From Clostridia bacterium (GTDB lineage Bacteria > Bacillota > Clostridia > Oscillospirales > CAG-272), in contig JAFTKY010000038.1 in the NCBI GenBank assembly GCA_017453005.1, positions 4,086-68,085 of the forward strand: 64,000 bases of DNA. The letters run 5' to 3'. Numbering within the stretch: position 1 is the first letter of the stretch; the number at the start of each line of letters is the position of its first letter. The notes beneath the pieces were generated by a model that was not told the origin of the DNA, did no database searches, and was given only the letters and a program-made list of their open reading frames with translations. The translations under genes were made by a program, and so were the position numbers. Below are positions 2 through 52,530 of this stretch, in pieces.

Positions 2-427
2 GATGCCTATGGCGGAAGTGCTCACACCCAATATTATATTAGAAAAGCCGGACAGTTCATGTATGGAAAATTGGATTTTCTTCATGCTGCCTTTGGAATT
101 GTTCCGGACTTTCTTGATGGATATGAGTCTACGCTTGATTCTCCCGCATTTGACCTTTCGGGGATTGATGGCCGTTTCTTGATGAACACTGTCATTCAAG
201 AAAACTTCTACTTGAAAAACGGAATGATTGCAAATGGAAGTAGAAAAGCCAAACGAATTCACGCAGACACCTTTCTCGAAATGGATATTTTGGTTCCTGA
301 TATTGAGGAACAGAAAAAGATCGGAGATTATTTTTCGCAGTTGGATAAGCAAATCTCTTTTGCTCAGCTTGAAATAAGTAAACTCCAGAATCTAAAAAAA
401 GCTTTGCTTGAAAAAATGTTTGTCTGA
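2..427 (+). CDS. hsdS: Type I restriction-modification specificity subunit HsdS, C-terminal part (5' end lies outside the window)
   Basis: Frame 2 is open from the window edge. The tail (...IEEQKKIGDYFSQLDKQISFAQLEISKLQNLKKALLEKMFV) looks like an HsdS target-recognition domain plus the conserved C-terminal helix. It lies immediately upstream of hsdR. Confidence 0.8.
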   Translation, partial: DAYGGSAHTQYYIRKAGQFMYGKLDFLHAAFGIVPDFLDGYESTLDSPAFDLSGIDGRFLMNTVIQENFYLKNGMIANGSRKAKRIHADTFLEMDILVPDIEEQKKIGDYFSQLDKQISFAQLEISKLQNLKKALLEKMFV

Positions 428-442
428 TACAGGAGGCAAGCT

Positions 443-3400
443 ATGGTATTTGAACAAGAAGCCGCTTTTGAAACGGCACTAATTAACTTACTAACAGAAA
501 AGTACGGTTGGGAGCCGGAAATTCTGCGCTACAAAACGGAAGAAGATCTGATCCAGAACTGGAAACAGATCCTCTTTGAAAACAACCGTGAAGTAGACAG
601 ATTAAACGATGTTCCGCTGACCAACGGCGAGATGCAGCAAATTCTTGACCAGATCACCCGTCTTCGCACACCGTTAAAACTCAATGGTTTTATCAACGGT
701 AAAACTGTTGCCATTAAGCGCGATAATCCTGCGGATGAATTGCACTTTGGCAAGGAAGTCAGTCTGAAAATCTATGACCGACAGGAAATTGCTGCCGGTC
801 AGAGTCGCTATCAGATCGCCCAACAACCGGTATTCAAGGCAAGAAGCTCTATTCTGCCCAACCGCCGTGGTGACTTTATGCTACTGATCAATGGTATGCC
901 GCTGATCCATTGCGAATTGAAGCGCAGCGGCGTGGATGTCAGTCAAGCATGCAATCAGATCGAGAAATATTCTCATGAGGGTGTATTTACCGGTCTCTTT
1001 GCCCTTGTCCAGATTTTTATTGCCATGCAACCGGACGAAGCTGTTTACTTTGCCAACCCCGGTCCAGACGGCAAGTTCAATAAGGACTACTATTTTCATT
1101 GGGCTGACGCCAACAATGAACCACTGAATAATTGGAAAGACATCGCACAGTATTTGCTCTCTATTCCGATGGCGCATCAGCTGATTGGATTCTATACTGT
1201 TGCTGATGATACGGATGGCATTTTGAAGGTCATGCGCAGTTATCAGTACTATGCTGCATCGCGTATCACCAGCCGCGTCGCTATGCGCCGTTGGGCTGAC
1301 AAAGATCAACTTGGTGGATATATATGGCATACAACAGGTTCCGGTAAGACGCTGACCAGCTTTAAGTCTGCGCAGTTGATCGCGGCATCCCGTGACGCTG
1401 ATAAGGTCGTATTTCTGATGGACCGTGTAGAACTTGGTACACAATCTTTGTTAGACTATCGCGGCTTTGCCGATGATTCTGAGTCTGTTCAGACAACCGA
1501 AAATACGGATATTTTGGTGGGCAAGCTGAGAAGCGATGATCCTGCCAACACGCTGATTGTCACATCTATTCAGAAAATGAGCCGTGTCGAGGAAGACAAC
1601 GGCTATAATGCGCGTGACATTGAAATCATCCGAGATAAGCGCGTAGTCTTTATTATTGACGAAGCTCACCGTGATGTGTTTGGTGAAATGCTGCGTACCA
1701 TCAAGGAAACATTCCCCAACGCCATGTTCTTCGGGTTCACCGGAACTCCGATTCACGATGAAAACCAGAAGAATATGAGCACTACTTCCGATGTGTTCGG
1801 CAATGAACTTCATAGATATAGCATTGCTGACGGTATCCGCGATAAGAATGTTTTGGGCTTTGACCCATACATGGTGCCGACATACAAAGATCGCGACCTA
1901 CGAAAGGCGGTTGCTCTTGAAAAGGCCAAGGCAGCAGCAGAAGCCGAGGCATTGGCAGATCCCAAGAAGAAAAAAGTTTATCTGGAGTATATGGATCATA
2001 CCAAAGTGCCGATGGCAGGCGTTCTGCAGGCCGATGGCAGCTATTTGAAAGGCATTGAAGATTACATTCCGACGGCTCAGTATGAGCGTGAGGAACATCA
2101 AAATGCCGTGGTAGACGATATTCTGGATAATTGGGTTACTCTTAGCCATGACAGTAAGTTCCACGCCATTTTTGCTACCAGCAGCATTGTAGAAGCCATC
2201 CAGTATTACAAGCTATTCAAAGAAAAGAGCACCTTGAAAGTTACAGCACTGTTTGATCCCAGCATTGATAACAATGGCGGTGCAACTTTCAAGGAAGACG
2301 CTATCGTTGAAATTGTTGAGGATTACAACGCACGCTATGACATGAAATTCCAGTTGGCTACCTATGCAGCATTTAAGAAGGATATTTCTTACCGTCTGGC
2401 ACACAAGGAGCAGTATAAATCTATCGAACGCACACCCGATCAGCAGATCGATTTGCTGATTGTCGTGGATCAGATGCTGACCGGCTTTGACTCCAAGTGG
2501 ATTAACACACTCTATCTTGACAAGGTTTTGGTTTACGAAAAGCTAATCCAGGCGTTTTCTCGTACAAATCGTCTTTACGGTCCGGAGAAACCGTTCGGTA
2601 CAATTCGGTACTATCGAAAGCCGTATACCATGCAGCGAAATATTGACATTGCGTTTAAGTCTTATTCCGGTGACAAGCCCCTCGGTATGTTTGCGGATAA
2701 GCTGGAATTTAACCTTGGCAAGATGAATGCTATATATGACGACATTGCTGCAATTTTCCACTCCGCAGGAATTGAGAATTTTGAGAAATTGCCTATTGAT
2801 CATGCTGAGCGAGGACAGTTTGCGAAGTTGTTCAAGCAATTCAACAACTATCTTGAAGCCGCTAAGATTCAGGGATTTAATTGGAAGAAGATTTCTTATG
2901 ACATCAGGACGGAAAATGGTTGGGTTAATGTCAAGCTTAATTTGGACGAAACGACCTATCTTATCCTTGCACTTCGCTATAAGGAGCTGTTTTCCGGTGG
3001 TGGTGTAGGCCCCGGTGGCGATGATGTCCCGTATGAAATTGACTCTTATTTGACAGAAATCAATACTGGTGTCATTGATGCCAACTACATGAATTCCCGG
3101 TTCAAGAAGTACATTAAGGCTCTGCAGGATGGAACTGAGACTGCCGCGGTACTGGACGAGCTACATAAATCGTTTGCCACCCTGACACAGGAAGAGCAGA
3201 AGTATGCCAATATATTCTTGCACGACGTGCAGAACGGCGATGTGATTGTAGATGAGGGTAAGACACTGCGCGATTACATCACAGAATACATGACTCGTGC
3301 AAAAAATGACCAGATTCACCGCTTTGCTACTGCTATCGGAGTAAGCGAAGCGATGCTGCGTAGCTTTATGCAGTTAAAAGTCACGGAAGCTAATATCAAT

Positions 3401-3565
3401 GAATTTGGTCGTTTCGACAAGCTGAAAGCGACCGTTGATCGCACAACCGCAAAGGCATTTTTAGAAGCACTCGAAGGAAACGCTATCAAGCCATTCCAGA
3501 TCAATATGAAGCTGGATCAGGTTTTGAGAAGGTTCATTCTTGAGGGTGGATTTGATGTAGAATAA
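443..3565 (+). CDS. hsdR: Type I restriction enzyme R subunit (HsdR), 1040 aa
   Basis: PD-(D/E)xK-like nuclease motif (DFMLLINGMPLIHCELK), helicase Walker A (HTTGSGKTLT), DEAH box (FIIDEAHRD) and typical HsdR size. AGGAGG lies 6 nt upstream of the ATG. Confidence 0.93.
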   Translation: MVFEQEAAFETALINLLTEKYGWEPEILRYKTEEDLIQNWKQILFENNREVDRLNDVPLTNGEMQQILDQITRLRTPLKLNGFINGKTVAIKRDNPADELHFGKEVSLKIYDRQEIAAGQSRYQIAQQPVFKARSSILPNRRGDFMLLINGMPLIHCELKRSGVDVSQACNQIEKYSHEGVFTGLFALVQIFIAMQPDEAVYFANPGPDGKFNKDYYFHWADANNEPLNNWKDIAQYLLSIPMAHQLIGFYTVADDTDGILKVMRSYQYYAASRITSRVAMRRWADKDQLGGYIWHTTGSGKTLTSFKSAQLIAASRDADKVVFLMDRVELGTQSLLDYRGFADDSESVQTTENTDILVGKLRSDDPANTLIVTSIQKMSRVEEDNGYNARDIEIIRDKRVVFIIDEAHRDVFGEMLRTIKETFPNAMFFGFTGTPIHDENQKNMSTTSDVFGNELHRYSIADGIRDKNVLGFDPYMVPTYKDRDLRKAVALEKAKAAAEAEALADPKKKKVYLEYMDHTKVPMAGVLQADGSYLKGIEDYIPTAQYEREEHQNAVVDDILDNWVTLSHDSKFHAIFATSSIVEAIQYYKLFKEKSTLKVTALFDPSIDNNGGATFKEDAIVEIVEDYNARYDMKFQLATYAAFKKDISYRLAHKEQYKSIERTPDQQIDLLIVVDQMLTGFDSKWINTLYLDKVLVYEKLIQAFSRTNRLYGPEKPFGTIRYYRKPYTMQRNIDIAFKSYSGDKPLGMFADKLEFNLGKMNAIYDDIAAIFHSAGIENFEKLPIDHAERGQFAKLFKQFNNYLEAAKIQGFNWKKISYDIRTENGWVNVKLNLDETTYLILALRYKELFSGGGVGPGGDDVPYEIDSYLTEINTGVIDANYMNSRFKKYIKALQDGTETAAVLDELHKSFATLTQEEQKYANIFLHDVQNGDVIVDEGKTLRDYITEYMTRAKNDQIHRFATAIGVSEAMLRSFMQLKVTEANINEFGRFDKLKATVDRTTAKAFLEALEGNAIKPFQINMKLDQVLRRFILEGGFDVE

Positions 3566-3582
3566 AGAAGTGGGGTGAAAAC

Positions 3583-4524
3583 ATGGCAAGTAAAACAAGA
3601 AAAGTCTCATTCTATCGGCTGTCGCTGGAAAAGCAGACTCCTATTCCGGGAACAAATACTGTCCAAGTAAAGCAGCTAAGTGATTCTGAAATCGAAGTAT
3701 ATTTCCAAAGGATATGCGCAGAGAAAATGCAGGCTCTTGCAAATGGGCACAAGGCAATGAATATAACCGTTTCCAGTAGCCGCTATGTTATCGAAGTGAT
3801 TTCCAACGAAGATCATCGTGCATTTATCAAAATTGGTCAGCAGAATCCTTCGAACACAGTGGCGCTCAGAGATCGAACGACATTGGAGACGGAAAGTGTA
3901 CCTATGAAGGAGAGCCAGCTTTTGGAGTTGTACACTTTCTGCCTGATCGATTTTGAAACTGGAATTGTCAGCTATATCGGAATCAATGGTGCTCCAAGAA
4001 TATCGGCAGTAAGAAATCTCTTTGATCAGGGAATTGACCGAGAGGAAAACGTTTCTGCTCATCTTGCGGCAATTATGACAAATGATATATTAGATGTCCT
4101 GGTGAAAAAGCATATCATCAGCAAGCTGTCTGTCACAGTTGCCGTTCCGGAAGATCAGATACTTTCTGATATTGGCTTAGACCGTGAAAGTTTCGATTCC
4201 GTGAGAAACATTAAAACTCGAATGATTACATACAAATTGGTCGGACGGAGAAACAAAAATATCTTTTCTTCAAGCGGCAAGCTCGCTGAAATGATTGCGT
4301 CAATAAAAATGAAATATGGTGACAATCTAAAAGGACTTAGTGCCAATGCAAAGGATTTCAATGAAAAATCTCAACCTTACGATCTGTTACAATATAATTT
4401 TACTAAAACGGTTATCTTGGGTAGAGACGATTCTGGGTTGTTGACGCTGGACGATTTCAAAGAAGCACTTGTACAAACATATACCTTGTACAAGAATGAA
4501 CTTTTGAAATACAGCAGAGTATAA
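3583..4524 (+). CDS. Hypothetical soluble protein (313 aa); first gene of an hsdR-linked two-gene cassette, function unknown
   Basis: ATG 17 nt after the hsdR stop, preceded by GGGGTGA. No hydrophobic segments. I can see no Walker, nuclease or other catalytic signature. Confidence 0.7.
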   Translation: MASKTRKVSFYRLSLEKQTPIPGTNTVQVKQLSDSEIEVYFQRICAEKMQALANGHKAMNITVSSSRYVIEVISNEDHRAFIKIGQQNPSNTVALRDRTTLETESVPMKESQLLELYTFCLIDFETGIVSYIGINGAPRISAVRNLFDQGIDREENVSAHLAAIMTNDILDVLVKKHIISKLSVTVAVPEDQILSDIGLDRESFDSVRNIKTRMITYKLVGRRNKNIFSSSGKLAEMIASIKMKYGDNLKGLSANAKDFNEKSQPYDLLQYNFTKTVILGRDDSGLLTLDDFKEALVQTYTLYKNELLKYSRV

Positions 4525-4530
4525 TAAGTA

Positions 4531-5001
4531 ATGGTGGTGAGAGGAATGACGAAGCTGAAAAATTGGATATGGTTGGGCATCGTATTGCTCTTGTCAATCG
4601 GTGTTTCTATTGTGTTATTCAAAAGTCCTCTTTTCGATATTTCAAAATTTGAAGAATTGGCACCGGATTTCCATTATAACGCAATTTCCTTGTCGGCAAT
4701 TATTGGCGGTTTCCTGTTTACCGGAATAAGTATTCTTATTTCAGTTATAGACAAGGACAGAATCAAGCGCTTGTGGGATTGTAATTATTTGGATAATCTA
4801 TATCGTTCTGCGTTTGTGGGAATGATTGCGAATGTCGCAACAATCATTGTTGCATTCCTGCTGGTTTTTCTGAACATTTGCCCTAAAGCGAATGATCTTC
4901 TTGTTAAAATAGAGATTACAACGCTTATTGTCGGAATCGTATTTTTTGCCTGGTGCATAAAGCATTTGATTTTTGTTATATCCAAATTAAAAGACCAATA
5001 A
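4531..5001 (+). CDS. Small integral membrane protein (156 aa, four predicted TM helices); second gene of the cassette
   Basis: Starts 6 nt after the previous stop. Hydrophobic stretches at about aa 12-30, 51-73, 94-116 and 127-150. The exact start is uncertain (ATG 4531 or ATG 4546). Confidence 0.65.
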   Translation: MVVRGMTKLKNWIWLGIVLLLSIGVSIVLFKSPLFDISKFEELAPDFHYNAISLSAIIGGFLFTGISILISVIDKDRIKRLWDCNYLDNLYRSAFVGMIANVATIIVAFLLVFLNICPKANDLLVKIEITTLIVGIVFFAWCIKHLIFVISKLKDQ

Positions 5002-5020
5002 GTATATCCGCATAGCAAAT

Positions 5021-5057
5021 AAGAGGACTTATGCCCATTTTGAGCTTAAGTCCTCTT
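5021..5057. terminator. Hairpin between convergent genes (end of the hsdR-cassette operon)
   Basis: AAGAGGACTTA-(loop)-TAAGTCCTCTT, an 11-12 bp stem between the + strand cassette and the - strand ORF ending at 5071. Confidence 0.6.
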
Positions 5058-5070
5058 GTTGCATATTTAG

Positions 5071-5334
5071 TTATTCTTCCATAACTTCCAGCATTATCCT
5101 GGCTCCCAGTTTGAAGCCATTCTGGAATATCAGGCAATCTGTGATGGTTTGGTATTCTCGCACGCAATCGGCGTATTTGTCGAACAATTCTTTCTGCTCG
5201 TCTGTCATGGTGAATTTGAGTTTTTCTTCGTTCTTGCAAATCAGCTCCAGTAGCTTCTTGTATTCTTTACAAGAGGATGTGTCATACTCGGTTGGTTCAA
5301 TATTGCCATACCAAAATTCTTCAAGAATTCTCAT
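5071..5334 (-). CDS. Small conserved mobile-element-associated protein (87 aa), partner of TnpV
   Basis: The start overlaps the tnpV-like stop by 4 nt (operon). The MRILEEFWYGNIEP... type sequence is one I recall from Clostridia transposons/ICEs (possibly a DUF6809-like family, from memory only). Confidence 0.55.
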   Translation of the reverse strand: MRILEEFWYGNIEPTEYDTSSCKEYKKLLELICKNEEKLKFTMTDEQKELFDKYADCVREYQTITDCLIFQNGFKLGARIMLEVMEE

Positions 5335-5708
5335 ACCACATCCTCCTCGTAGATCATTTCACGGAGAATGATCTCCTCTGCTCGGTTGCGGATGCTGCTC
5401 ATAGCTCCAACCCATGCCATCTGATCGTGCTGCTTCATGCACTCTGTCGCGCCCTCAGTAGCTTTCATTTGCTCAGAGATAAGTTCAAGGCGGCGCTGTG
5501 CCTGTTCGTTCAGATCAGCCAGATACGTCCACAGTTTGCCGCTAAGGCACAGGTCGTTAAAACGGATGGGATTGTGCTCCTTGATATAATCTCTGTGCAT
5601 ACGCCCCCAACGACCAATAGGTCTGGCTTCCTCCGGTAAGCGAATATCGGGAATATAGTAATCACCACAACGGATATAGTTCAGTTCCTGCATCATATGT
5701 ACCTCCAC
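5331..5708 (-). CDS. tnpV: TnpV-family transposon-associated protein (125 aa)
   Basis: Pattern YYIPDIRLPEE...IGRWG..H..Y.KEH.P....L..SGKLW.YLADLNEQAQ...MKATEG.TE.MK..DQMAWVGAM..IRNRAEEI matches my recollection of TnpV proteins of Tn4451-like elements. Confidence 0.7.
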   Translation of the reverse strand: MEVHMMQELNYIRCGDYYIPDIRLPEEARPIGRWGRMHRDYIKEHNPIRFNDLCLSGKLWTYLADLNEQAQRRLELISEQMKATEGATECMKQHDQMAWVGAMSSIRNRAEEIILREMIYEEDVV

Positions 5709-5766: not shown

Positions 5767-5891
5767 TAACTTTTGTTTAGCCAACCCCGTCTGACAGATG
5801 CCGTAAAATAGTTAAATTTTGGTTTAACTGTTTTACGAGCACCCGCCATTGCTCGGAGGCTTTTACGTTAATCTGTGTTCAATTCTGTTGG

Positions 5892-8039
5892 TTATTCTAC
5901 AAGAAGAGCAAATCCAAGCTCGTCAACTGTTACGCCGACGGAGTTTTCCGCGAGCATTCCGTCAAACCATGCGATAAGGTCTGATATACAAAGCTGATAG
6001 GTTTCAAGAAGGTCGGCGTCAATTTCAATCTCGCCCTCGGTGTAATCATAGGTGAGAGCGGTGTCGACCGTATAGGTCGGCGCGTTGATATAGCCCTCAA
6101 TATAGTTATACGTCGTGTAATCCGCGTCGGCATACTCGCAGTAGTAGAGAAGGCTGTTGGAATTCGTAAGCTCAATGCAGGAATACAGCACGTAGCCGTC
6201 CTCAAATTCCCAGATCACGTCAATATACATGACCTCGTATTCCTCGTCATATCCGAGGGAGTACCACGAGCCGTCGTCGTAATACTCATCGTAGGCGAAG
6301 TATCCTTCCTCTGCGGAGGTCTGATTTGTGTTCGCCCAGGCGTAGAGTGTGTCAAGGACACTGCTGCTTTCGCTGCCGCTATTGCCACCGTTGTCATCAC
6401 TTCCCGTGTTGCCGCTATTGCCGCCGTTCCCGTCAAAGCTGCTCTCAAACACAGCAAAGCCGGTATCATTGAGTGTTACGCCTATCCGGTTTTCTTCAAG
6501 CATAAGCTCGAACCAGGAGATAAGGTCGACCACGTATTCCTGATATGCCGCAAGAGTTTCGGCGTCAATATCGCCCTCGCTGTAATCGTAATCAAGCGCG
6601 GTGCTTGCAGTGAACGTTGCCGCGTCGATATATCCCTCAATGGCGTTTATCACATTGTAATCTGCGTCGGTGTATTCAACGTAGTAGTAATGCTCGTAGG
6701 ACGTCTCGTCAAACTCGATGGAGATATAAACGGAGGAGCCGTCCTCGTATTCCCAAAGCACGTCGATATATAACACACCGTAGTCAAAATCGTAGCCGAG
6801 CGAGTACCACGAGCCGTCATCATAGACGTTATCGTAGCAGAAATAGGTCTCCTCGTCAGAGGTGTAGTTGCTTTCTATCCACGCGTAAAGCACATCGAAG
6901 GCGGTGGAATATTCCTCGATAAATTCATCAAGGGGTGTTTCGTCTATGTAGGTGAGATTTTCAATTTCGGACACGGATACGGCAAAATTAAGATTTTGAG
7001 AATCGTCGCCGATAAGCGTCCACGTGTTTACGCCGATAACCTCGCCGTACGTGTTGAAGAGCGGTCCGCCCGAGTTTCCGCTTGATATGGACGCATCGTG
7101 CTGGATATGCATAACGCCGTCAACTTCACGCCCGGCATATGCAATTATGCCGTGTGAGAGGGAGGCGGTCATGCCCTCGGACGAGCCGAGCGCGTAGACG
7201 GTAGAGCCAACTCTCATGGGCTTGTCGCAAAGCGTAGCGAAGGGAAGGTTCTCCCCCTCGATTTTCAATATTGCGAGGTCGATGGTTTTGTCAAAGGCAA
7301 GCACGCCGACAAGCTCGTATTCCTTCTCGTCGATAGTTATAATTGCGGAGTATGCGCCCTCAATTACGTGATAATTTGTGAGCACCTGTCCGTCTGCGCT
7401 GATGATTGAGCCTGTTCCGATTGCATATTCCTCGCCGTTTTTATCGTAGGTCGTTATTTCGCCGACGTAGGAGAGCGCGCTGTCGTATATATCGCCCGCG
7501 AAAAGCTCGGGGAGGGAATATTCCTCGGTGCAGGAGTAGTCGCAGCCCTCTGCGGTGCACGTGTATTTTATAATTCCGTCCTGCTCGCAGGACGCAGCTG
7601 TCTGGACGCTACCCTCGTCAAGCGTGTGACCGAGAGGCTGGAGGGTTATCTGCGGGGAGATAACAACGCCGCAAACGCTGCAATGCGAGCCTGCGGTCTT
7701 ACCGCTTTCGGTACATGTGGGTGCTACTGCGAGGTCTTCCGAAACGGTATGCTCGGTGGGCAGAAGTGCAAGATATTGCTTGTGGCCGCATTCACATTCC
7801 TGATACGTCGAGCCATAGGAGATGCAGGTCGCAGCCTTGTCTACCTTCCAGTCCGAGAAGATATGTGTATGCTCGGCGCTGTCTGCGGGCTTTTCTGTCG
7901 GTGCATCCGTGGGAGCCTCGGTCGGAGCTGTTGTGGGAGCTTCGGTAGGGTCTGACTTATCGTCACACGCCGCAAGCGTGAGGCAAAGCATTATTGCCAG
8001 AACAGAGAAAAATAAAGCAAATAACTTTTTTGCGTTCAT
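5892..8039 (-). CDS. Secreted lipoprotein: trypsin-like (S1/HtrA-type) serine protease with Cys-rich modules and a duplicated acidic C-terminal domain (715 aa)
   Basis: Signal peptide plus lipobox (LTLAAC), PT-rich linker (PTEAPTTAPTEAPTDAPTEKP) and three H..C...G.....C..CG modules. Catalytic contexts are TNYHVIEG, DLAILKI and SGNSGGPLF. Two C-terminal domains of about 170 aa, rich in Tyr/Asp/Glu, are separated by a GN/GS linker. Confidence 0.85.
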   Translation of the reverse strand: MNAKKLFALFFSVLAIMLCLTLAACDDKSDPTEAPTTAPTEAPTDAPTEKPADSAEHTHIFSDWKVDKAATCISYGSTYQECECGHKQYLALLPTEHTVSEDLAVAPTCTESGKTAGSHCSVCGVVISPQITLQPLGHTLDEGSVQTAASCEQDGIIKYTCTAEGCDYSCTEEYSLPELFAGDIYDSALSYVGEITTYDKNGEEYAIGTGSIISADGQVLTNYHVIEGAYSAIITIDEKEYELVGVLAFDKTIDLAILKIEGENLPFATLCDKPMRVGSTVYALGSSEGMTASLSHGIIAYAGREVDGVMHIQHDASISSGNSGGPLFNTYGEVIGVNTWTLIGDDSQNLNFAVSVSEIENLTYIDETPLDEFIEEYSTAFDVLYAWIESNYTSDEETYFCYDNVYDDGSWYSLGYDFDYGVLYIDVLWEYEDGSSVYISIEFDETSYEHYYYVEYTDADYNVINAIEGYIDAATFTASTALDYDYSEGDIDAETLAAYQEYVVDLISWFELMLEENRIGVTLNDTGFAVFESSFDGNGGNSGNTGSDDNGGNSGSESSSVLDTLYAWANTNQTSAEEGYFAYDEYYDDGSWYSLGYDEEYEVMYIDVIWEFEDGYVLYSCIELTNSNSLLYYCEYADADYTTYNYIEGYINAPTYTVDTALTYDYTEGEIEIDADLLETYQLCISDLIAWFDGMLAENSVGVTVDELGFALLVE

Positions 8040-8183: not shown

Positions 8184-10694
8184 TTACTGTGCTTTGTTAA
8201 CTGCAACGATGTAGACGTAGTTGCCGTCAACGGTTGCCATTTCTATCGTGCCGTTGTAGTTCTTTATGTAGCCGCGAACGATTACCGTGTCACCTACGCT
8301 TATAGTGCTGACACCTTCCTCAAGGCTCGCGGTGTAAATGAGCAGACTGCTTGTGCCGTCGCTGATATACACGTTCTTGTAAAAGCTTGTGAATTCGCCG
8401 ATGGACTCAACGGTGCCGGTAACGAAAAACATATCCTGAGATGCCTGGCCGCTTGCAAGGTTTTTGCAAGCTTCGAGTGCCTCGGATGCCGAAACAGGAT
8501 CGTCAAACGTGCCGTAATTGATTACGGGCTCCTCCGTGGGAGGCACAACGGGCTCCTCGGTGGGAGGCACAACGGGGTCTTCTACGGGATCGTCGCAACG
8601 GTGGAACTCGGTTACGAGAATGCTGAGGTACTTGCCGCCTCCGGTGATGTTTGTTACGTAGCCTGTAACGGATATGACAGCTCCGTTAAGCTCGGCAAGG
8701 AGAGCCTTCTGTTCTGCCGTGGGATAGCTGACGCTACCCGTTACGGTTGCGGAGCCTACCGTAAGGTTGTAGTAATTGCCCGACACGGAAAGCGTACCTA
8801 TGACGGTAACGTATTCGGGGGTTATTGCGCTTGCGGTTGCGTATGCGTCCATTTGTGCCGCGTCGAGTGATTTGGGAGCGGGCTGCTCAAGGGTGACGGT
8901 GCTCTTTTTTTCGTACGTTGACGCAGCACCAAACTGCTTTGCACCGCCGTATGAGGACGTATCTCCCGATACGCTGACAACGTCACCGACGTATACGTCG
9001 GGGGTCCAGGTGTTGCCCTTGTAAACGAGGATCATACCCGTGCCGTCGGAGAGAAGGAATGACTGCGCGTTCACGCCAACTACAGTTCCCTCAACCGTAT
9101 AGCTGCCAAGCTCACCTGCGAGCACGTCCGAGATTGACGTTCCGTCAGGGGTGGGGGGATCTATGGGATCTGTGGGATCTGTGGGATCACCGGGGATGTC
9201 GGGTGCTTTGCCAAGGTGCGTCATGAAGATGTTGACGTACTTGTTCCCGCCCGTGAATCCTGTTACGTAGCCCGTAACGGATATTACGGTGCCGTCAAGT
9301 GCCTGAAGCGCCGCCTTTGCGGGCTCATCGGGGTAGGAGACGCTACCCATAAGCGTTGCGCCGTCTACCGCGATGTTGTAATAGTTGCCGGAGACGGTGA
9401 GCGTTCCGGTTATCTTTATGTAATCGTATCTTGCAATTCCGTCGCCGAGAATAGCGTCAAAATCTGCACCCCAAAGCTCGGTGGGGGTGGGAAGTGTCAT
9501 CTCCTCACCGGGGGTTGCCGTGTAGGTCGCGTCAATGTGGAACTGTGTGCCGCCTGCATGAGAGGTGGTCACACCCTCTACGTGGATATTGTCACCGAGC
9601 TTTACGTCAGGTGTCCAGCCGCCGCCTCTGTAGACCATTATGCTTCCAACACCGTCGGAAATGATGAAGGACTGCGAGTTGATAGCCGTGACGACACCGT
9701 CTGTTGCGTATTTTCCAAATTCTGCTGCGAGGATCTCGCTTATGGTCATCTCTGTAGGAGGAGTGACTGCGGGAGGCTCGTTGTCCAGAACCGTTACGGT
9801 TGCGGTCATAACGTTAAGATATTTTCCGCTGCCGGTTACGTTGGTAACGTATCCTATTATCTCAATATACTGACCGTCCATCTGAGTGATAACGTCCTTG
9901 AATTCTGCCATAGGATAGGAAATGCTTCCTACCATGGACGAGCCGTCTATAAGAAGGTTGAAGTAGTTGCCCGATACCTGGAGAATACCCTTTATCTTAA
10001 CGAACAAGGGGGATACGGGATTTGCGGTTGAGTATGCGTTCAGCTGTTCTACGGTAAGCTCAACGGGCTCGGGGTGAGTGTATCCGTTGGGAACGGAGTT
10101 GGTAATCTCGTAGGTTGCCGTTGTTCCAAACTGCTTTGCACCGCCGTAAACCGTCGTGTCACCCGAGACGGTGACACTGTAGCCGACCTTTACGTCGGGG
10201 GTCCAGGTGTTACCCTTGTAAACAAGGATCATGCCCGTGCCGTCGGAAAGAAGGAAGGACTGTGCGTTATAGCCTACTACGTAGCCGTCAACGGTATAGT
10301 TGCCAATCTCGCCTGCGAGAACGTCCGCAACCGTTATCTCCGAGGGAGAAGGAGGAATGGGATTTTCGTCCGTGGGAGCCTCGGTGGGCGCGGATGTGGG
10401 AGCCTCGGTAGGCTCGGCCGTGGGAGCCTCGGTAGGCTCAGCCGTGGGAGCCTCGGTGGGCTCAGCTGTGGGAGCTTCGGTAGGAGCTGCCGTGGGTGCC
10501 TCGGTGGGCTCAGCCGTGGGAGCCTCCGTAGGAGCTGCCGTGGGTGCCTGGGTAGGAACGGGTATCGGGAGGCCTGTGGGCGTGGAGGGGACGTCAAGAG
10601 AGACCTTGATCTCGTCACAACCGACGACCGACAAAACTGCCGTAATAAGAAGCGCTGCTACCAGCAAATAGCTGATAAAAGATGTCTTTTTCAT
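8184..10694 (-). CDS. Secreted lipoprotein with a long (PTEAPTAx)n linker and repeated OB-fold-like beta-barrel domains (836 aa); no catalytic domain recognised
   Basis: Signal peptide plus lipobox (SVVGC). Three units of about 185 aa (e.g. ISDVLAGELGSYTVEGTVVGVNAQSFLLSDGTGMILVYKGNTWTPDVYVGDVVSVSGDT..YGGAKQF) plus a C-terminal OB-like domain (FFVTGTVESI...VYISDGTSSLLIY...VGDTVIVRGYIKNYNGTIEM). These resemble the tRNA_anti/YhcR-type OB folds of extracellular nucleases. Confidence 0.8.
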   Translation of the reverse strand: MKKTSFISYLLVAALLITAVLSVVGCDEIKVSLDVPSTPTGLPIPVPTQAPTAAPTEAPTAEPTEAPTAAPTEAPTAEPTEAPTAEPTEAPTAEPTEAPTSAPTEAPTDENPIPPSPSEITVADVLAGEIGNYTVDGYVVGYNAQSFLLSDGTGMILVYKGNTWTPDVKVGYSVTVSGDTTVYGGAKQFGTTATYEITNSVPNGYTHPEPVELTVEQLNAYSTANPVSPLFVKIKGILQVSGNYFNLLIDGSSMVGSISYPMAEFKDVITQMDGQYIEIIGYVTNVTGSGKYLNVMTATVTVLDNEPPAVTPPTEMTISEILAAEFGKYATDGVVTAINSQSFIISDGVGSIMVYRGGGWTPDVKLGDNIHVEGVTTSHAGGTQFHIDATYTATPGEEMTLPTPTELWGADFDAILGDGIARYDYIKITGTLTVSGNYYNIAVDGATLMGSVSYPDEPAKAALQALDGTVISVTGYVTGFTGGNKYVNIFMTHLGKAPDIPGDPTDPTDPIDPPTPDGTSISDVLAGELGSYTVEGTVVGVNAQSFLLSDGTGMILVYKGNTWTPDVYVGDVVSVSGDTSSYGGAKQFGAASTYEKKSTVTLEQPAPKSLDAAQMDAYATASAITPEYVTVIGTLSVSGNYYNLTVGSATVTGSVSYPTAEQKALLAELNGAVISVTGYVTNITGGGKYLSILVTEFHRCDDPVEDPVVPPTEEPVVPPTEEPVINYGTFDDPVSASEALEACKNLASGQASQDMFFVTGTVESIGEFTSFYKNVYISDGTSSLLIYTASLEEGVSTISVGDTVIVRGYIKNYNGTIEMATVDGNYVYIVAVNKAQ
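10368..10556 (-). repeat. In-frame 24-bp tandem repeat array encoding (PTEAPTAE/PTEAPTAA)n, about 8 units
   Basis: Read directly: GTGGGAGCCTCGGTAGGCTC(G/A)GCC-type units repeated head to tail. Translated aa 47-109 of the 836-aa protein. Confidence 0.85.
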
Positions 10695-37798: not shown

Positions 37799-37909
37799 TG
37801 TAATCAAGGTAGAATTTCTCAAAGTGGGCTAACTGTCCCTTCTGCGAGAATTCTTGAAAAAAATTACGTTTTTTGAAAGAAAAAAACAAAAAACTATTTG
37901 GAGGTATTT

Positions 37910-40900
37910 ATGAACCGTAATTTCATCAAAATTTCGGTGAGCATCGTTGCTCTTCTTCTTGCTCTTGCTTTCTGCATGACAGGTTGTAAGGTAGACGACG
38001 TTGCTGCGGACATCGGTACTGCAAAGGACGAGATCGCCGCAAACAAGGCAGATGCCGCTAAGGCTCTTGAAGAGGCTACAAAGGCTCTTGAAGAAAAGAT
38101 CGCCGCAAACGAAACAGACTGTGCAGCAGAGATCGCTGCTGTAAACGCGGCTATAGCTGAGGCTCAGAAGGCGTCCGATGCTTCTGACGCAGCTCTTGAG
38201 ACCGCTATTGCAGACGCTAAGGCTGCTCTCAACACTGCTATAAAGGCAGTACAGGCAGATCTTGAGGCTGCAAAGACAGCTCTCAGCGATAAGATCGCCG
38301 CAAACACCGCAGAGCTTAACGAAGAGATCGCTGCACTCGTAGCAGCTCTCGAGAACATTGAGCTCGCATACCAGGCTGCAGACCTTGAGCTTGCAGTTGC
38401 GGTTTCTACATACATTGACGAGTGCTACGCAACTCTCGAAGCAGCAATCGCTGTTGTAGCAGGTGACGTAGATGCTCTTACAGAGTACGTAGAGGACGCT
38501 GTTGAGGCTCTTGAGGCTGACATTGCAGCAGGCAACAAGAATCTTCTTGATTCCATCGCAGCAGTAAACAACGCTATCACTCTTGCACAGGCAAAGGCTG
38601 AGACTGCAGACGCAGCTCTCAAGGAAGCTCTTGAGCAGGCAATTGCTGACGCATCCAAGGCTATCGTTGAGGCTGTTGACGTAATTAAGGAAGATCTCCA
38701 GAGCAAGATCGATACTCTCAACGAGTCCGTTTCTACCATCGACAACACTGTAAGTGTAACCATCGCAGGTCAGATCAAGGACATCAACGATGCTATCGAT
38801 GCTATCAACGCTGATACGACACTTGCTGACGCTATCGATGCAGTAGAGGCTGACATCGAGGCTCTTTACACAACTATCGCTACATACCAGCAGACAACCG
38901 AGGAAGTTGTTAAGGCATGGCACGAGATTTACACGACCTACCAGCTTTGGGAGCAGGTTAACGTAAGCTACGGTGACATGTACGTTCTCGACGCAGAGGG
39001 CAACAAGGTTCCCGTTGACGTTGCTGCAGAGTACGCTTCTGCACAGGTTCGCCTTTACAGAGCACTCAACCTTGAAGAGGTTAACACAGTTAAGGCTGCA
39101 TTCTTCGCAGTAATCAGAAACGTTAAGTCCGATACTCTTGACATGCTCAACGCGATCTACGCTAACCTCGTAGCTGCAGAGGAAGGTCTTGCTGCAGAGG
39201 CTATTGACCTCAAGGCAGTAAGAACAAGCCTTGATGCGGCAGATCTTTCCAACTATGCAGAGGCTAAGCTTATCGTTGACGGTAAGGTTGTTGATCTCCA
39301 CGTAATGAGCAACAATCTCTGGACAGAGTATAATAAGGTCAGAGTTGCTGTTGTTGAGGATTACCTCGAGGCAGGTAACCTTGAAGCTGCAAGAGCAGGT
39401 ATCCTTGATCTCGTAGCAGACGGCGAGGACGCTTCCGAGCTTATCGCTGACTACAACGCAAAGAGAGTTGCTATCGTTGAGACGCTTATCGCTGATCTTG
39501 ATGCAGCACTCGGCGCAGCAGAGTCCCTTGAGGCACTTGAAGAGGCAGCAAAGGGCGCACAGGCAGTTGGTGATGCATACACAGCTCTTGAAAACGATAC
39601 GGATATCGCAGTAGAGATAACTGATCTTGAAAATCTCGAAGCAAAGATGGCAGTTGTAGAGGAGAACTACGTTCTTCACCGCATCAAGTTCGCTAAGGCA
39701 GGCATTGAAGCTGCAGTGGTTGTTGACGACCTTGCAGACGACAAGGCAATCCTTGACGGCATTACCGCTACTACAGCAACTATTGAGGCTAAGCTTGAAG
39801 AGGCATACGCAGCTTACTACTCCAAGTACGTACTTATCCATGCAGCAGACCTTACTGCTGACATGAACGCATATATCGACAACCTCGCAGCAATCTACGC
39901 TGATTACAACGATGCAGACAATGATGCTATCGGTGCTATCAGAGCAGACTACGTTGCATTCGTTGACAACCGTGACCTCGCAGAGGCATTCCGCGTAAAT
40001 GCTGAGAACGACGTTCTCAAGGCTCTTGCAGAGGCAGAGGTTAAGTTCGTTGCAGTTGAGAACCAGCTCCTCGCTCTCGAGGCACTCGTTCCCGCAGGTG
40101 AAGCAGTAGCAGCAATCCTTGGCAACGAAGAGTTCGACGAAATCACAGGTACAAAGTCTGAGTTCACAGTTCTTAAGGACTACAAGACACAGGCAGCAGC
40201 ATGGGTCGTTGAGCTTGACGCTCTCTATGCAGACTTCACAGATAACGAAGCTAACAAGGCAGCTTACGACGAGATCAGAACGATTGTTGACGAGGCTGGT
40301 TACAATACGATCAACACATTGTTCGAGGCAGAGATCGCTGATCTCATGGATGCTGCAGATGCAGTAACCAATGCAATCAGCACTCTCGAAGCAGCAGTTG
40401 CAGACGGCATTAAGCTTACAACTGTTGAGGACGTTGAGGCAGCACAGGCGGCAGTTAACACATGGATCGGTCTCGCAACAGATCCCGACGGTGTTGCATT
40501 CATCCTCGAGTGGAGATCCAACGGTGAGCTCACACACGAAATGCTCATCAAGACAGTAAACGCAAGAGATACTCAGTACAAGGCATACCTCAAGACAGCA
40601 CAGGATGCATGGACAGCTTGCTACACAGCAGAGTACCAGGCACTCACAGTTGACAACATTAAGTATGACGAGACAGCTCTTACCGCTGTAAGAGAGTGGT
40701 TCACAACATACGGTGTTATCACCGCTGCATACGCAGCAGAGCACGGTCTCACAGGCATCGGTACAGATGTTGAAGAGGCAAATCTCGCAGCTCTTGAGGC
40801 TCAGCTCGTAATCGAGATTGCAGAGCGCCAGGCTCTCGTAGCAGACCTCGCTTCTCAGGCAGCAGCTCTCCAGGGCAGAATCGATGCACTTGGTAACGTT

Positions 40901-42703
40901 ACAACCGACTCCAAGGATACAGTAGCAGCTCTCAGAGTAGATTATGACGCATGGGTTAAGGCTTGTGCAGATAACAATGTTGCTCAGAGCGAAGAGAACG
41001 GCACAGTTGTTGACGCAGCAGCTCTCGTAGCAGCTGAGGCTAAGCTTGATCAGATCAGAAATCTTGGTATGGATATCGCAACCGGTATCGCTGACCTCAG
41101 AGTTCCCGAGCTCGGCACAGATCCCGCAACTCCTTACTTCGCAGATGCGGCTGCTCAGGAAGCATACGCAGCAGAGGTTGAAGCAATCGTTGAAAAGCTC
41201 GCTGAGTACGAGGAGCTTAACGACGGTTACAGAGGAAACTTCTCCGAAGATCTTCTTAAGAAGGTTGCTGACTGCCAGCTCTACGCTGATAAGTACACAG
41301 CACTTGTGAAGCTTAACAACGCATACGTAGCAATAGACGCTCAGGCAACTGACGCAACAGTTAAGGCAGAGCTTGCAAACTACCTTAACAATACAAGAGC
41401 AACTGTTGACGCTATTGACAGCGCAACAGCAAATGCAGCTGCAGTTATCGGATTCTACGGTAACCAGGCAGAGGCAGATATGCTTGAAATCGCAAATAAT
41501 GCAGGGGACCCCGGTTCGGGGTCCTCTGGCGTTACTACGGAGGCTCCCACGGCAGCTCCTACAGAGGCCCCCACAGCAGCGCCCACAGAGGAACCTACGG
41601 CAGCTCCTACAGAAGCTCCCACGGCAGCTCCTACAGAGGCTCCCACAGAGGAACCCACAGAGGCTCCGTTAGCTCCTGTAGAAACAACTATTGATTTCTC
41701 TACAACAGATCAGCGTAAGTCTCTGGCGACAGAACAGCAGATATGGGTGAATGGTGATATAACCTTTACACATCTTAAGGCTGAATCAACCACTAATATC
41801 GCTGATTATAGCAATCCCATTCGTTTGTATAAGAGCTCGAGCATTACTATTTCTGCATACGGTACCATTACTAAAATAGTATTTAACGTGGCAGACTCCA
41901 ATTATAATACAATTGAAGCCTCTATAGGAACAGTTTCCGGTGCTACTGTTACAGTCGATGGATTGACAATAACTGTGGAATTTGCTGAGGGAGTCGGATC
42001 CTTTACAATCGACGCACTTACTGCACAGAACCGTTTGAATTCTATCGTAGTAACATACGTACCCGCGTGTGCGCACGCTAACAAAACCACCACTACAGTA
42101 GAGGCGGATTGCACAACCGCAGGTTCTATTACAGTAACCTGTGACGATTGCGGAAACACCGTATCCGAGACAAAGCTTGAAGCACTCGGACACACGGGTG
42201 GTGAAGCAACCTGCGAGGAAAAGGCAGTTTGCACGGTTTGTGGTGAAAGCTATGGTAGCTTGGCTGCTCACAGCTACGTTGCTGGTATTTGCTCCGTTTG
42301 CGGCAAGGAAGAATCCACTGTTACCGTTGTAAATTACGTTCTTAAGGCGACCGCATCCAACGGAACTGCATATTATTGGGACGGTACCGCATCGGGCGGA
42401 ACGGGTGCTATGACCACTGATGCCGCAAGTGCTGCTGTTCTTACTATGGAAACAGTAGACGGTGGTGTTTACGTATATTACACCGATGCTACAGGCGCAA
42501 AGCAGTATATCACTATTGGAACAGCCAATAAGGGATTTGGTGTCAGCACAACAGCAACTGTGCTCAATTATAACTCTGAAAACGGCTATGTATATGCAAA
42601 CGACCGTTACATTGCAAGCTACGGCGTTCAGGATATCCGCACATATAAGGAATCCGCCGTCACCGGCACCAATATGTACTTCGTTATGACAGTTGTTGAA
42701 TAA
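37910..42703 (+). CDS. Giant alanine-rich alpha-helical cell-surface lipoprotein with PT-linker, Cys-rich modules and C-terminal beta-rich domains (1597 aa)
   Basis: Signal peptide plus lipobox (LALAFCMTGC). About 1200 aa of A/E/D/L-rich helical sequence, then a linker (TTEAPTAAPTEAPTAAPTEEPTAAPTEAPTAAPTEAPTEEPTEAP). C...G.....C..CG modules shared with the protease at 5892-8039. Two terminator hairpins follow. The TTG at 37898 in the ORF track overlaps the RBS, so the ATG at 37910 is preferred. Confidence 0.85.
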   Translation: MNRNFIKISVSIVALLLALAFCMTGCKVDDVAADIGTAKDEIAANKADAAKALEEATKALEEKIAANETDCAAEIAAVNAAIAEAQKASDASDAALETAIADAKAALNTAIKAVQADLEAAKTALSDKIAANTAELNEEIAALVAALENIELAYQAADLELAVAVSTYIDECYATLEAAIAVVAGDVDALTEYVEDAVEALEADIAAGNKNLLDSIAAVNNAITLAQAKAETADAALKEALEQAIADASKAIVEAVDVIKEDLQSKIDTLNESVSTIDNTVSVTIAGQIKDINDAIDAINADTTLADAIDAVEADIEALYTTIATYQQTTEEVVKAWHEIYTTYQLWEQVNVSYGDMYVLDAEGNKVPVDVAAEYASAQVRLYRALNLEEVNTVKAAFFAVIRNVKSDTLDMLNAIYANLVAAEEGLAAEAIDLKAVRTSLDAADLSNYAEAKLIVDGKVVDLHVMSNNLWTEYNKVRVAVVEDYLEAGNLEAARAGILDLVADGEDASELIADYNAKRVAIVETLIADLDAALGAAESLEALEEAAKGAQAVGDAYTALENDTDIAVEITDLENLEAKMAVVEENYVLHRIKFAKAGIEAAVVVDDLADDKAILDGITATTATIEAKLEEAYAAYYSKYVLIHAADLTADMNAYIDNLAAIYADYNDADNDAIGAIRADYVAFVDNRDLAEAFRVNAENDVLKALAEAEVKFVAVENQLLALEALVPAGEAVAAILGNEEFDEITGTKSEFTVLKDYKTQAAAWVVELDALYADFTDNEANKAAYDEIRTIVDEAGYNTINTLFEAEIADLMDAADAVTNAISTLEAAVADGIKLTTVEDVEAAQAAVNTWIGLATDPDGVAFILEWRSNGELTHEMLIKTVNARDTQYKAYLKTAQDAWTACYTAEYQALTVDNIKYDETALTAVREWFTTYGVITAAYAAEHGLTGIGTDVEEANLAALEAQLVIEIAERQALVADLASQAAALQGRIDALGNVTTDSKDTVAALRVDYDAWVKACADNNVAQSEENGTVVDAAALVAAEAKLDQIRNLGMDIATGIADLRVPELGTDPATPYFADAAAQEAYAAEVEAIVEKLAEYEELNDGYRGNFSEDLLKKVADCQLYADKYTALVKLNNAYVAIDAQATDATVKAELANYLNNTRATVDAIDSATANAAAVIGFYGNQAEADMLEIANNAGDPGSGSSGVTTEAPTAAPTEAPTAAPTEEPTAAPTEAPTAAPTEAPTEEPTEAPLAPVETTIDFSTTDQRKSLATEQQIWVNGDITFTHLKAESTTNIADYSNPIRLYKSSSITISAYGTITKIVFNVADSNYNTIEASIGTVSGATVTVDGLTITVEFAEGVGSFTIDALTAQNRLNSIVVTYVPACAHANKTTTTVEADCTTAGSITVTCDDCGNTVSETKLEALGHTGGEATCEEKAVCTVCGESYGSLAAHSYVAGICSVCGKEESTVTVVNYVLKATASNGTAYYWDGTASGGTGAMTTDAASAAVLTMETVDGGVYVYYTDATGAKQYITIGTANKGFGVSTTATVLNYNSENGYVYANDRYIASYGVQDIRTYKESAVTGTNMYFVMTVVE

Positions 42704-52341: not shown

Positions 52342-52403
52342 AAAAAATACCTCCTCTCGCCATAGGCAGAAAGAAGGTAAAATATGCCTTTTTTGAGCCG
52401 TAT

Positions 52404-52504
52404 GAAGCGGGATGCAAGACCGAGACCGCATTGGAAATTTCCAAAATTCGTCCGCAGGACAACTCCCCGTCCCTGCGGCACTACCGCCTCGAGCTTTACT
52501 CTTC
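52404..52504 (-). promoter_or_regulatory. THF (tetrahydrofolate) class I riboswitch
   Basis: Minus strand GAAGAGUAAAGCUCGAGGCGGUAGUGCCGCAGGGACGGGGAGUUGUCCUGCGGACGAAUUUUGGAAAUUUCCAAUGCGGUCUCGGUCUUGCAUCCCGCUUC. It shares the GAGAGUA...GGGA.G...ACGAA...GCGG...UUGCAUCCGCU(C)C framework and helices of the Eubacterium siraeum folT THF aptamer as I recall it. Confidence 0.82.
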
Positions 52505-52530
52505 AAATTTCGTGGTTTTTCCACAAGACC

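Follow-up and report, generated by a model that had tools for sequence, protein, structure and literature searches.

The 64,000 nucleotides (nt) analysed here, referred to throughout as the window, come from a Clostridia bacterium (contig JAFTKY010000038.1, positions 4,086 to 68,085). Close to their left end, directly behind the hsdR gene of a type I restriction-modification (R-M) operon, lie two small genes that encode a soluble protein of 313 amino acids (aa), here called protein A, and a membrane protein with four transmembrane (TM) helices, here called protein B. We propose, with a probability of roughly 0.7, that the two proteins function together as an exclusion (abortive-infection, Abi) system of the RexAB type, with a membrane partner distinct from that of phage lambda. 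RexAB is the oldest known abortive-infection system and, at the level of the modelled sensor fold and of remote sequence homology, the A-B pair is a member of it. The proposal builds on A being homologous to RexA, on the topology of B, on the co-inheritance of the two genes, and on the mobile and defence-related contexts in which they are found; DNA sensing, an interaction between A and B, membrane damage and a phage phenotype are what we infer from these observations.

Protein A has no hydrophobic segment (the maximum Kyte-Doolittle mean over 19 residues is 1.33) and is very probably a remote homologue of lambda RexA, as judged by a structure model and by profile comparison. An AlphaFold2 model of A, built from 39 homologues, reached a predicted local distance difference test (pLDDT) value of 76 and a predicted template-modelling (pTM) score of 0.69. 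When this model was compared with the PDB using Foldseek, the top matches were chains B and A of lambda RexA (8TWQ; probability 1.00; expect values (E) of 2.8e-8 and 9.6e-7), and the third match was E. coli RdgC (2OWL, E 0.011), a structural relative of RexA (Adams et al., PMC11077077). RexA forms dimers that bind DNA non-specifically, and its split fold of two domains is like that of RdgC; according to its published topology, the globular domain is interrupted by a four-stranded, four-helix dimerisation domain. The order of elements in the model of A agrees with this topology, and the RexA fold is recovered in it: an N-terminal β-rich globular part is followed by an insert of four strands and four helices (residues ~157-257), after which the chain passes back into the first domain through two more strands and ends in a long C-terminal helix. 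Membership of A in the RdgC sequence family was also considered and rejected, since there was no match to Pfam RdgC and RdgC was only the third fold match.

Profile comparison likewise connects A with RexA, although sequence identity between the two is only ~16%. Using hhalign, the A superfamily was aligned with lambda RexA alone at E 2.7e-5 and with a four-sequence RexA profile at a probability of 93.1% (E 3.3e-7) over 210 colinear columns, spanning residues 76-311 of A and 51-270 of RexA, while a reversed-RexA control reached 0.3%. A plain hidden Markov model (HMM) of distant A members (alignment A2) finds lambda RexA at E 4.6e-7. Furthermore, two superfamily members, P0360 and P0340, match the PADLOC RexA model (PDLC02339) directly (E 7.6e-8 and 1.7e-5, respectively) and also match the profile of the window A (E 8e-18 and 9e-22); the downstream partner of P0340 is a clear B-family protein. 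The hhalign alignment places R219-A-K221-D222 of RexA opposite N255-A-K257-D258 of A, and the R219A/K221A double mutation is known to abolish both DNA binding and T4rII exclusion by RexA. Of 52 superfamily members, 42 have K or R at position 257 and 26 at position 255, opposite R219; by alignment, A itself thus has the basic residue K257 at the base of the dimerisation domain. In addition, P110 of RexA is aligned with the near-invariant P138 of A.

Protein B possesses four hydrophobic segments (~12-30, 55-73, 96-114 and 132-150), while the 144-residue RexB of lambda has its TM helices at 8-26, 48-66, 84-102 and 116-134. In its size, its four-TM topology and its position after a short gap downstream of A, B resembles RexB, being an adjacent and co-directional four-TM partner of about the expected ~145 aa. 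In the AlphaFold model of B (pLDDT 83), the four helices are long and the loop between TM2 and TM3 includes a further, short amphipathic helix; the distribution of K and R residues suggests, by the positive-inside rule, that this loop and both termini are cytoplasmic. The loop following TM2 carries a conserved, basic and amphipathic stretch, DKDRIKRLW. In an alignment of 27 B sequences (A4), the invariant positions include H43, T59, the GFxFT motif of TM2, D69, G92, E123 and G130. B has the architecture of RexB; similarity in sequence is not detectable, and B is not claimed here as a RexB homologue.

A word-indexed search with A returned 158 matches, all of ~310 aa, all annotated as hypothetical and found in Clostridia. 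An exhaustive profile search yielded 290 representatives at 50% clustering, of which the full-length ones measure ~300-330 aa, with shorter fragments besides. The superfamily occurs mainly in gut Clostridia, with some members in Bacilli and one in a cultured Clostridia phage. A tblastn search of A against cultured phages gave a single distant match, Acetoanaerobium phage ANDSL2_ph1, and a scan of IMG/VR for A relatives gave no confirmed locus. Two of the distant A members (alignment A2) match Pfam DUF6731 (best E 5.9e-6) and one matches PADLOC PDC-M10A (E 0.0013), and these two families may be further branches of a RexA-like superfamily. Other Pfam matches of single members in the distant A set (Geminin, Peroxidase_2, CHASE9 and others) were treated as noise.

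A and B are inherited as one unit, and this co-inheritance is strict across the superfamily. In all 29 of the first loci fetched, a B homologue lies directly downstream of A on the same strand, down to identities of 41% for A and 47% for B. In an independent metagenome sample of 80 loci, B was present in each of the 77 with room for it (73 full-length and four partial copies, with none absent). Many of the loci counted are near-identical contigs from a single gut lineage, and the figures are to be read as observations, not as independent evolutionary events. Six distant A relatives (~20-25% identity), one of them from the cultured temperate phage ANDSL2_ph1, are each followed by a B-family protein (HMM E 2.6e-12 to 4e-26); five of these proteins have four predicted TM helices and one (L045) has three in a simple scan. 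A database search with one distant B (L042_B) returned ten proteins only, none of which is named.

Among the four partial copies of B, two are truncated where their contigs end, a third lacks an internal segment and the fourth has a probable low-coverage frameshift. The deletion (L051:1712-1925), in which residues ~47-106 are missing, stands beside an intact A and hsdR and probably marks a pseudogene, while the frameshift (L092) occurs in a contig at 1.8x coverage and is probably an assembly error. At another locus, on an integrase element (L003:7897-9258), B breaks off after residue ~78, and next to it lies an inserted element with genes for a tyrosine integrase, an HTH_3 repressor and Bro-N; a prophage may have integrated into the putative membrane-effector gene and inactivated it.

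In the window, the pair forms part of a compact gene block with the following features:

59-427, plus strand: 3' part of hsdS, the specificity subunit gene, cut by the window start (Pfam Methylase_S, E 1.7e-5)
443-3565, plus strand: hsdR, type I restriction subunit with an EcoR124_C-type C-terminal domain (Pfam HSDR_N, ResIII, SWI2_SNF2, T1R_D3-like and EcoR124_C; PADLOC REase_I, E 2e-144)
3583-4524, plus strand: protein A, RexA-like soluble protein of 313 aa, predicted DNA-binding sensor (Foldseek, hhalign, K257)
4546-5001, plus strand: protein B, four-TM membrane protein of 151 aa (156 aa if the start is at 4531), predicted RexB-like effector
5015-5062, no strand: strong hairpin between the convergent genes B and DUF6809, probable bidirectional terminator (folding energy, dG, -24.7 kcal/mol)
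5071-5334, minus strand: DUF6809 (Pfam, E 6e-26)
5331-5708, minus strand: TnpV (Pfam, E 9e-43)

A gap of 17 nt separates the hsdR stop codon from the open reading frame (ORF) of A, and a Shine-Dalgarno-like GGGGTG lies just 5' of the ATG of A. The gap between A and B is 6 nt if B starts at 4531 and 21 nt if it starts at the ATG at 4546. The latter start is the most likely one, because a GAGAGGA ribosome-binding site precedes it, because many database homologues of B are 151-152 aa long, and because three related loci have an in-frame stop within the five-codon extension. The stems of the hairpin (5020-5030 and 5046-5056) lie inside the fold, for which a z-score of -5.8 was obtained, none of 200 shuffles being equally stable; its long loop is the reason why a simple terminator scan overlooked it. 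In the window, simple scans for terminators and for sigma-70 promoters gave counts no better than those of shuffles, and the sigma-70 scan found no promoter better than chance upstream of A. In view of the 17-nt gap and the lack of a convincing promoter of its own, A-B is probably expressed from the hsdR transcript and co-transcribed with the type I R-M genes.

The first-pass annotation of this DNA, made by a model from the sequence alone, had described most of this block correctly. Its two ORFs after hsdR are in place, with the start of B most likely at 4546 instead of 4531, and its division into a soluble protein and a four-TM protein is borne out, as is the closing hairpin. The block was also said to be AT-richer than the DNA to its right and to be followed by TnpV-type genes, and indeed the GC content is 0.37-0.40 across 3501-5000 and 0.50-0.56 to the right, with TnpV and DUF6809 as neighbours. 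Similarly, its failure to find a signature in A by eye agrees with Pfam, NCBIfam and PADLOC, which gave no match for either A or B; matches of these proteins to PHROGs (E 0.037-0.11) and in a PDB sequence search (E 1.9) were treated as noise.

The relatives of the pair fall into contexts with and without a type I R-M system. In the clade of the window (A identity of at least 75%), hsdM-hsdS-hsdR-A-B is a conserved block, and complete hsdM-hsdS-hsdR operons are present in two related loci (L005 and L012). Loci at ~77% nt identity share hsdS-hsdR-A-B with the window up to the last codons of B and diverge after that point. In the metagenome sample, 54 of the 60 loci belonging to this clade encode HsdR immediately upstream of the pair, and HsdR is adjacent in none of the 12 loci below 75% A identity. 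A second R-M lineage (A 55% and HsdR 47% identical) has the arrangement hsdMSR-A-B, in which the gap is only 2 nt; the element that carries it also encodes a relaxase. In a crude neighbour-joining tree, non-R-M lineages separate it from the window clade, and A-B is found with at least two type I R-M lineages. Yet another HsdR lies near the pair in a further locus (L025).

Elsewhere, prophages carry A-B between their replication and terminase modules (L009, L027 and L047) or in a lysogeny module, flanked by lysis genes on one side and by an integrase with a CI-like repressor on the other (L045). In a cultured temperate Clostridia phage (L038) the pair adjoins the integrase, and in L001 it is carried as cargo by a small integrase element, with Fic as its neighbour. 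Other neighbours of the pair include Schlafen/AlbA_2, HipA, Zeta toxin, RHS, smpB and another HsdR, and none of the loci examined placed it in a housekeeping operon. At one locus (L015:7837-9464), A-B is preceded by only the last ~150 nt of hsdR, and the genes further upstream are unrelated and have no Pfam matches; here the module has survived the loss or replacement of its R-M operon. As a separate observation on the R-M genes, hsdM of this operon family encodes 925 aa (L005:67-3608; L012:18-3641), which is presumably long for an HsdM, and is preceded by a conserved ORF of 235-274 aa with no Pfam match. This operon family may possess extra domains or an additional member.

From position 1 to ~5860, the window is 95-98% identical at the nt level to contigs from other taxa, namely a Clostridiales metagenome-assembled genome (MAG; UMGS1206), a roe-deer Clostridia MAG and an Acetatifactor MAG. 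This identity ends at ~5850-5864, where the GC content also rises. Accordingly, hsdMSR, A-B, DUF6809 and TnpV travel together on a single mobile element with its right end near 5860, and the comparison indicates that this element has been transferred horizontally in recent times.

A mode of action may be proposed by analogy with lambda Rex and with the Rex-like systems of a Pseudomonas putida prophage and of phages Sbash and CarolAnn. Protein A, which is probably a DNA-binding dimer, would sense phage-specific DNA or a protein-DNA intermediate. It would then engage B, a small inner-membrane four-TM protein with predicted cytoplasmic termini, in which the loop DKDRIKRLW is a candidate docking site for A. 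Activated B may compromise the membrane by depolarisation or permeabilisation, and such damage would arrest the infected cell and abort phage growth. Because the pair is probably expressed from the hsdR transcript, A-B in the window could provide a second layer of defence behind restriction, carried on a mobile element.

The lambda RexA-RexB system (PF15969/PF15968; PDB 8TWQ) is itself a co-directional pair with the soluble gene first, followed after 15 nt by a gene for a four-TM protein, both membrane proteins being within ~145-150 aa. A shares with RexA its fold, a remote profile similarity and the A-K-D DNA-binding motif, and some relatives of A-B are situated in prophage lysogeny regions. 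In contrast to lambda Rex, A-B resides in Clostridia, not in an enterobacterial phage, and the module of the window follows hsdR and not cI. A precedent is provided by RexABpp of a P. putida prophage (PP_5643/PP_5644), for which HHpred pointed to RexA, while its four-TM partner has no RexB homology; phage defence and membrane damage were demonstrated for this DNA-binding protein and growth-arresting membrane effector (Rosendahl et al. 2026, PMC12894663). As with A-B, there were no clues from BLAST, the soluble protein was remotely RexA-like and the four-TM partner matched nothing. Since RexABpp was assigned by the same criteria and subsequently shown to defend, there is precedent for calling A-B Rex-type. 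The likeness is drawn from its published description, and RexABpp differs in belonging to another phylum and in its prophage immunity-region context.

The actinobacteriophage pairs Sbash gp30/31, CarolAnn gp44/43 and Butters gp30/31 also combine a RexA-like DNA-binding dimer with a membrane protein, are prophage-borne and exclude heterotypic phages. Unlike A-B, they have larger soluble proteins (337-372 aa) and actinobacterial hosts, none has been reported in an R-M operon, and in Butters the effector logic is reversed. With regard to genomic position, the anticodon nuclease PrrC of the type IC EcoprrI locus is an abortive-infection function situated within, and expressed with, a type I R-M operon (PMC12707154). 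A-B has the same kind of embedding, and the HsdR beside it carries EcoR124_C, a domain named after the type IC enzyme EcoR124I. PrrC is, however, a single ATPase-nuclease unrelated to A or B, and the coupling of A-B to the R-M enzyme is putative.

Several findings weigh against a Rex-type assignment, among them the lack of three features of RexAB: recognition by curated models, homology of the partner to RexB, and location in a prophage immunity region. Neither A nor B of the window matched Pfam PF15969/PF15968 or the PADLOC RexA and RexB models at E <= 1, while both Pfam models recognise the lambda proteins, RexA matching PF15969 at 1e-97. The comparison of B with RexB by hhalign gave a probability of 0.1%, no better than shuffled or reversed controls; the B-family HMM scored at most 2.7 bits against four RexB sequences, and a Foldseek search of the B model against BFVD produced no significant fold match (best E 0.03). 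The equivalence of B and RexB is one of size, topology and position alone. As regards location, the pair in the window adjoins hsdR instead of CI, although some distant relatives (L045 and L038) do adjoin an integrase and a CI-like repressor. The model of A is only moderately confident, with pLDDT below 60 around residues 91-110 and 191-210, and its global template-modelling scores (TM-scores) against 8TWQ are modest at 0.42 and 0.46, which we attribute to the hinge between the two domains, as would be expected if these are hinged differently. Finally, the DNA binding of RexA is not the primary determinant of exclusion (Adams et al., PMC11077077), for which reason the sensing step is uncertain even for lambda.

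The position of the pair behind hsdR raises the question as to whether it is coupled to the type I enzyme, firing when an anti-restriction protein of a phage blocks restriction, or sensing DNA intermediates made by HsdR. We regard this as rather unlikely. It is in keeping with the 17-nt gap after hsdR and the lack of a better-than-chance promoter, with the hsdS-hsdR-A-B block that loci at ~77% nt identity share exactly, ending at the stop codon of B, with the frequent adjacency of HsdR in the window clade, with the second hsdMSR-A-B clade and its 2-nt gap, and with the HsdR near the pair in L025. The EcoR124_C domain also points in this direction, PrrC being a documented guardian in a type IC locus (PMC12707154). 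A stricter version, slightly less likely again, would make A-B a dedicated guardian, co-translated from the hsdR transcript, that monitors HsdR or its DNA products and collapses the membrane should a phage disable restriction or evade it. However, most lineages have no R-M neighbour and are found in prophages, on integrase elements or as stand-alone copies, the pair is retained in L015 after the loss of R-M genes, the counted loci are largely redundant copies of one gut lineage, and the linkage may simply reflect the clustering of defence genes on mobile elements. The recurrent fusion to R-M operons is compatible with a guardian role, but the R-M-free lineages do not require one. The logic of the pair might also be reversed, with soluble A as the toxic effector and B sequestering it until infection, a possibility that we consider more doubtful still. 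Rosendahl et al. summarise such an arrangement for Butters gp30/gp31, where the cytosolic RexA-like partner acts as the effector and defence can do without the membrane protein; it may be added that B has no similarity to the channel-forming RexB. Against this, no locus with A and room for B has lost it (77/77 and 29/29), and B is as conserved as A; its charged or polar residues H43, T59, D69 and E123, in or near the helices, are invariant, as one would expect if B were an active membrane effector. In addition, three of the four other characterised Rex-like systems have the membrane protein as their effector.

A role outside defence appears very unlikely. A would then be an RdgC/RexA-like DNA binder that modulates recombination, maintenance or a lysogeny switch, and B an anchor or unrelated cargo. 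RexA does have a RexB-independent role at the bistable switch of lambda, which it can bias, it shares its fold with the recombination regulator RdgC, and several A-B copies adjoin integrases or CI/Xre-type repressors. The strict pairing of A and B through the whole superfamily nevertheless argues for a joint function; moreover, in the window and its clade the pair belongs to an R-M operon and neither a repressor nor an integrase lies beside it, and many prophage copies lie between replication and packaging modules, away from the switch. The first-pass annotation had likened the pair to Kiwa with its gene order inverted, and this we reject as having almost no chance of being correct. The resemblance is one of superficial layout alone, a ~300-aa soluble protein beside a four-TM protein; in Kiwa the four-TM KwaA is upstream of KwaB, opposite to A-B, the order of which is identical to that of Rex. 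Neither the window proteins nor 51 distant relatives matched PADLOC KwaA/KwaB or Pfam DUF4868, and the best fold match of A is RexA and not KwaB.

A Rex-type exclusion module remains our preferred reading, and it alters what was initially suggested for this locus, namely a candidate new defence module of a sensor and a membrane effector. That the two genes form a co-conserved, mobile soluble/membrane pair on a type I R-M operon stands: they are adjacent in every locus with room for both, down to ~20% A identity, and recur in prophages, integrative elements and toxin or defence neighbourhoods. The sensor and membrane-effector idea has gained strength, as A is a RexA homologue and the gene order, the sizes and the four-TM partner match RexA-RexB. 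The claim of an undescribed kind of system, on the other hand, is weakened by the remote homology of A to the named RexA family. Structure prediction, which had been advised for both proteins, connected A with 8TWQ and gave no such lead for B.

A-B is not a categorically new mechanism; it is an unannotated, Clostridia-centred branch of a classic and poorly understood system. To our knowledge, the trigger that activates RexA has been an open question for 70 years. The present family is sizeable and unnamed, its 290 representatives having no model in Pfam, NCBIfam or PADLOC. It pairs a RexA homologue with a different conserved four-TM family, and current defence-annotation tools, PADLOC 2.0 among them, would miss the pair. 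If the guardian reading were true, A-B would be the membrane-effector counterpart of PrrC and would offer a concrete candidate trigger for Rex-type sensors; if it is just another accessory Abi system, its practical value lies in better annotation of the defence islands of the gut microbiome. Only five Rex-like systems have been described, all of them prophage-borne and from Proteobacteria or Actinobacteria (Rosendahl et al. 2026, PMC12894663). For such systems, to be joined head-to-tail to type I R-M operons, as happens recurrently here, is a new context, and in the literature that we searched, which was incomplete and may have missed an earlier description, we found no account of a Rex-type system from Clostridia or from an R-M operon.

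Other features of the window lie to the right of the mobile element. Two large predicted secreted proteins of 715 and 836 aa are encoded on the minus strand at 5892-8039 and 8184-10694, respectively; both have signal-peptide-like N-termini and long Pro/Thr-rich linkers of (A/E)PTEAPT repeats, and the 836-aa protein has repeated internal modules in addition. At 37829-42703, a plus-strand ORF of 1601 aa is almost wholly overlapped by a minus-strand ORF of 971 aa, one of which is presumably spurious. Finally, a tetrahydrofolate (THF) riboswitch is present on the minus strand at 52403-52505 (Rfam RF01831, 69.5 bits; gathering score 36), upstream of a minus-strand ORF of 672 aa.

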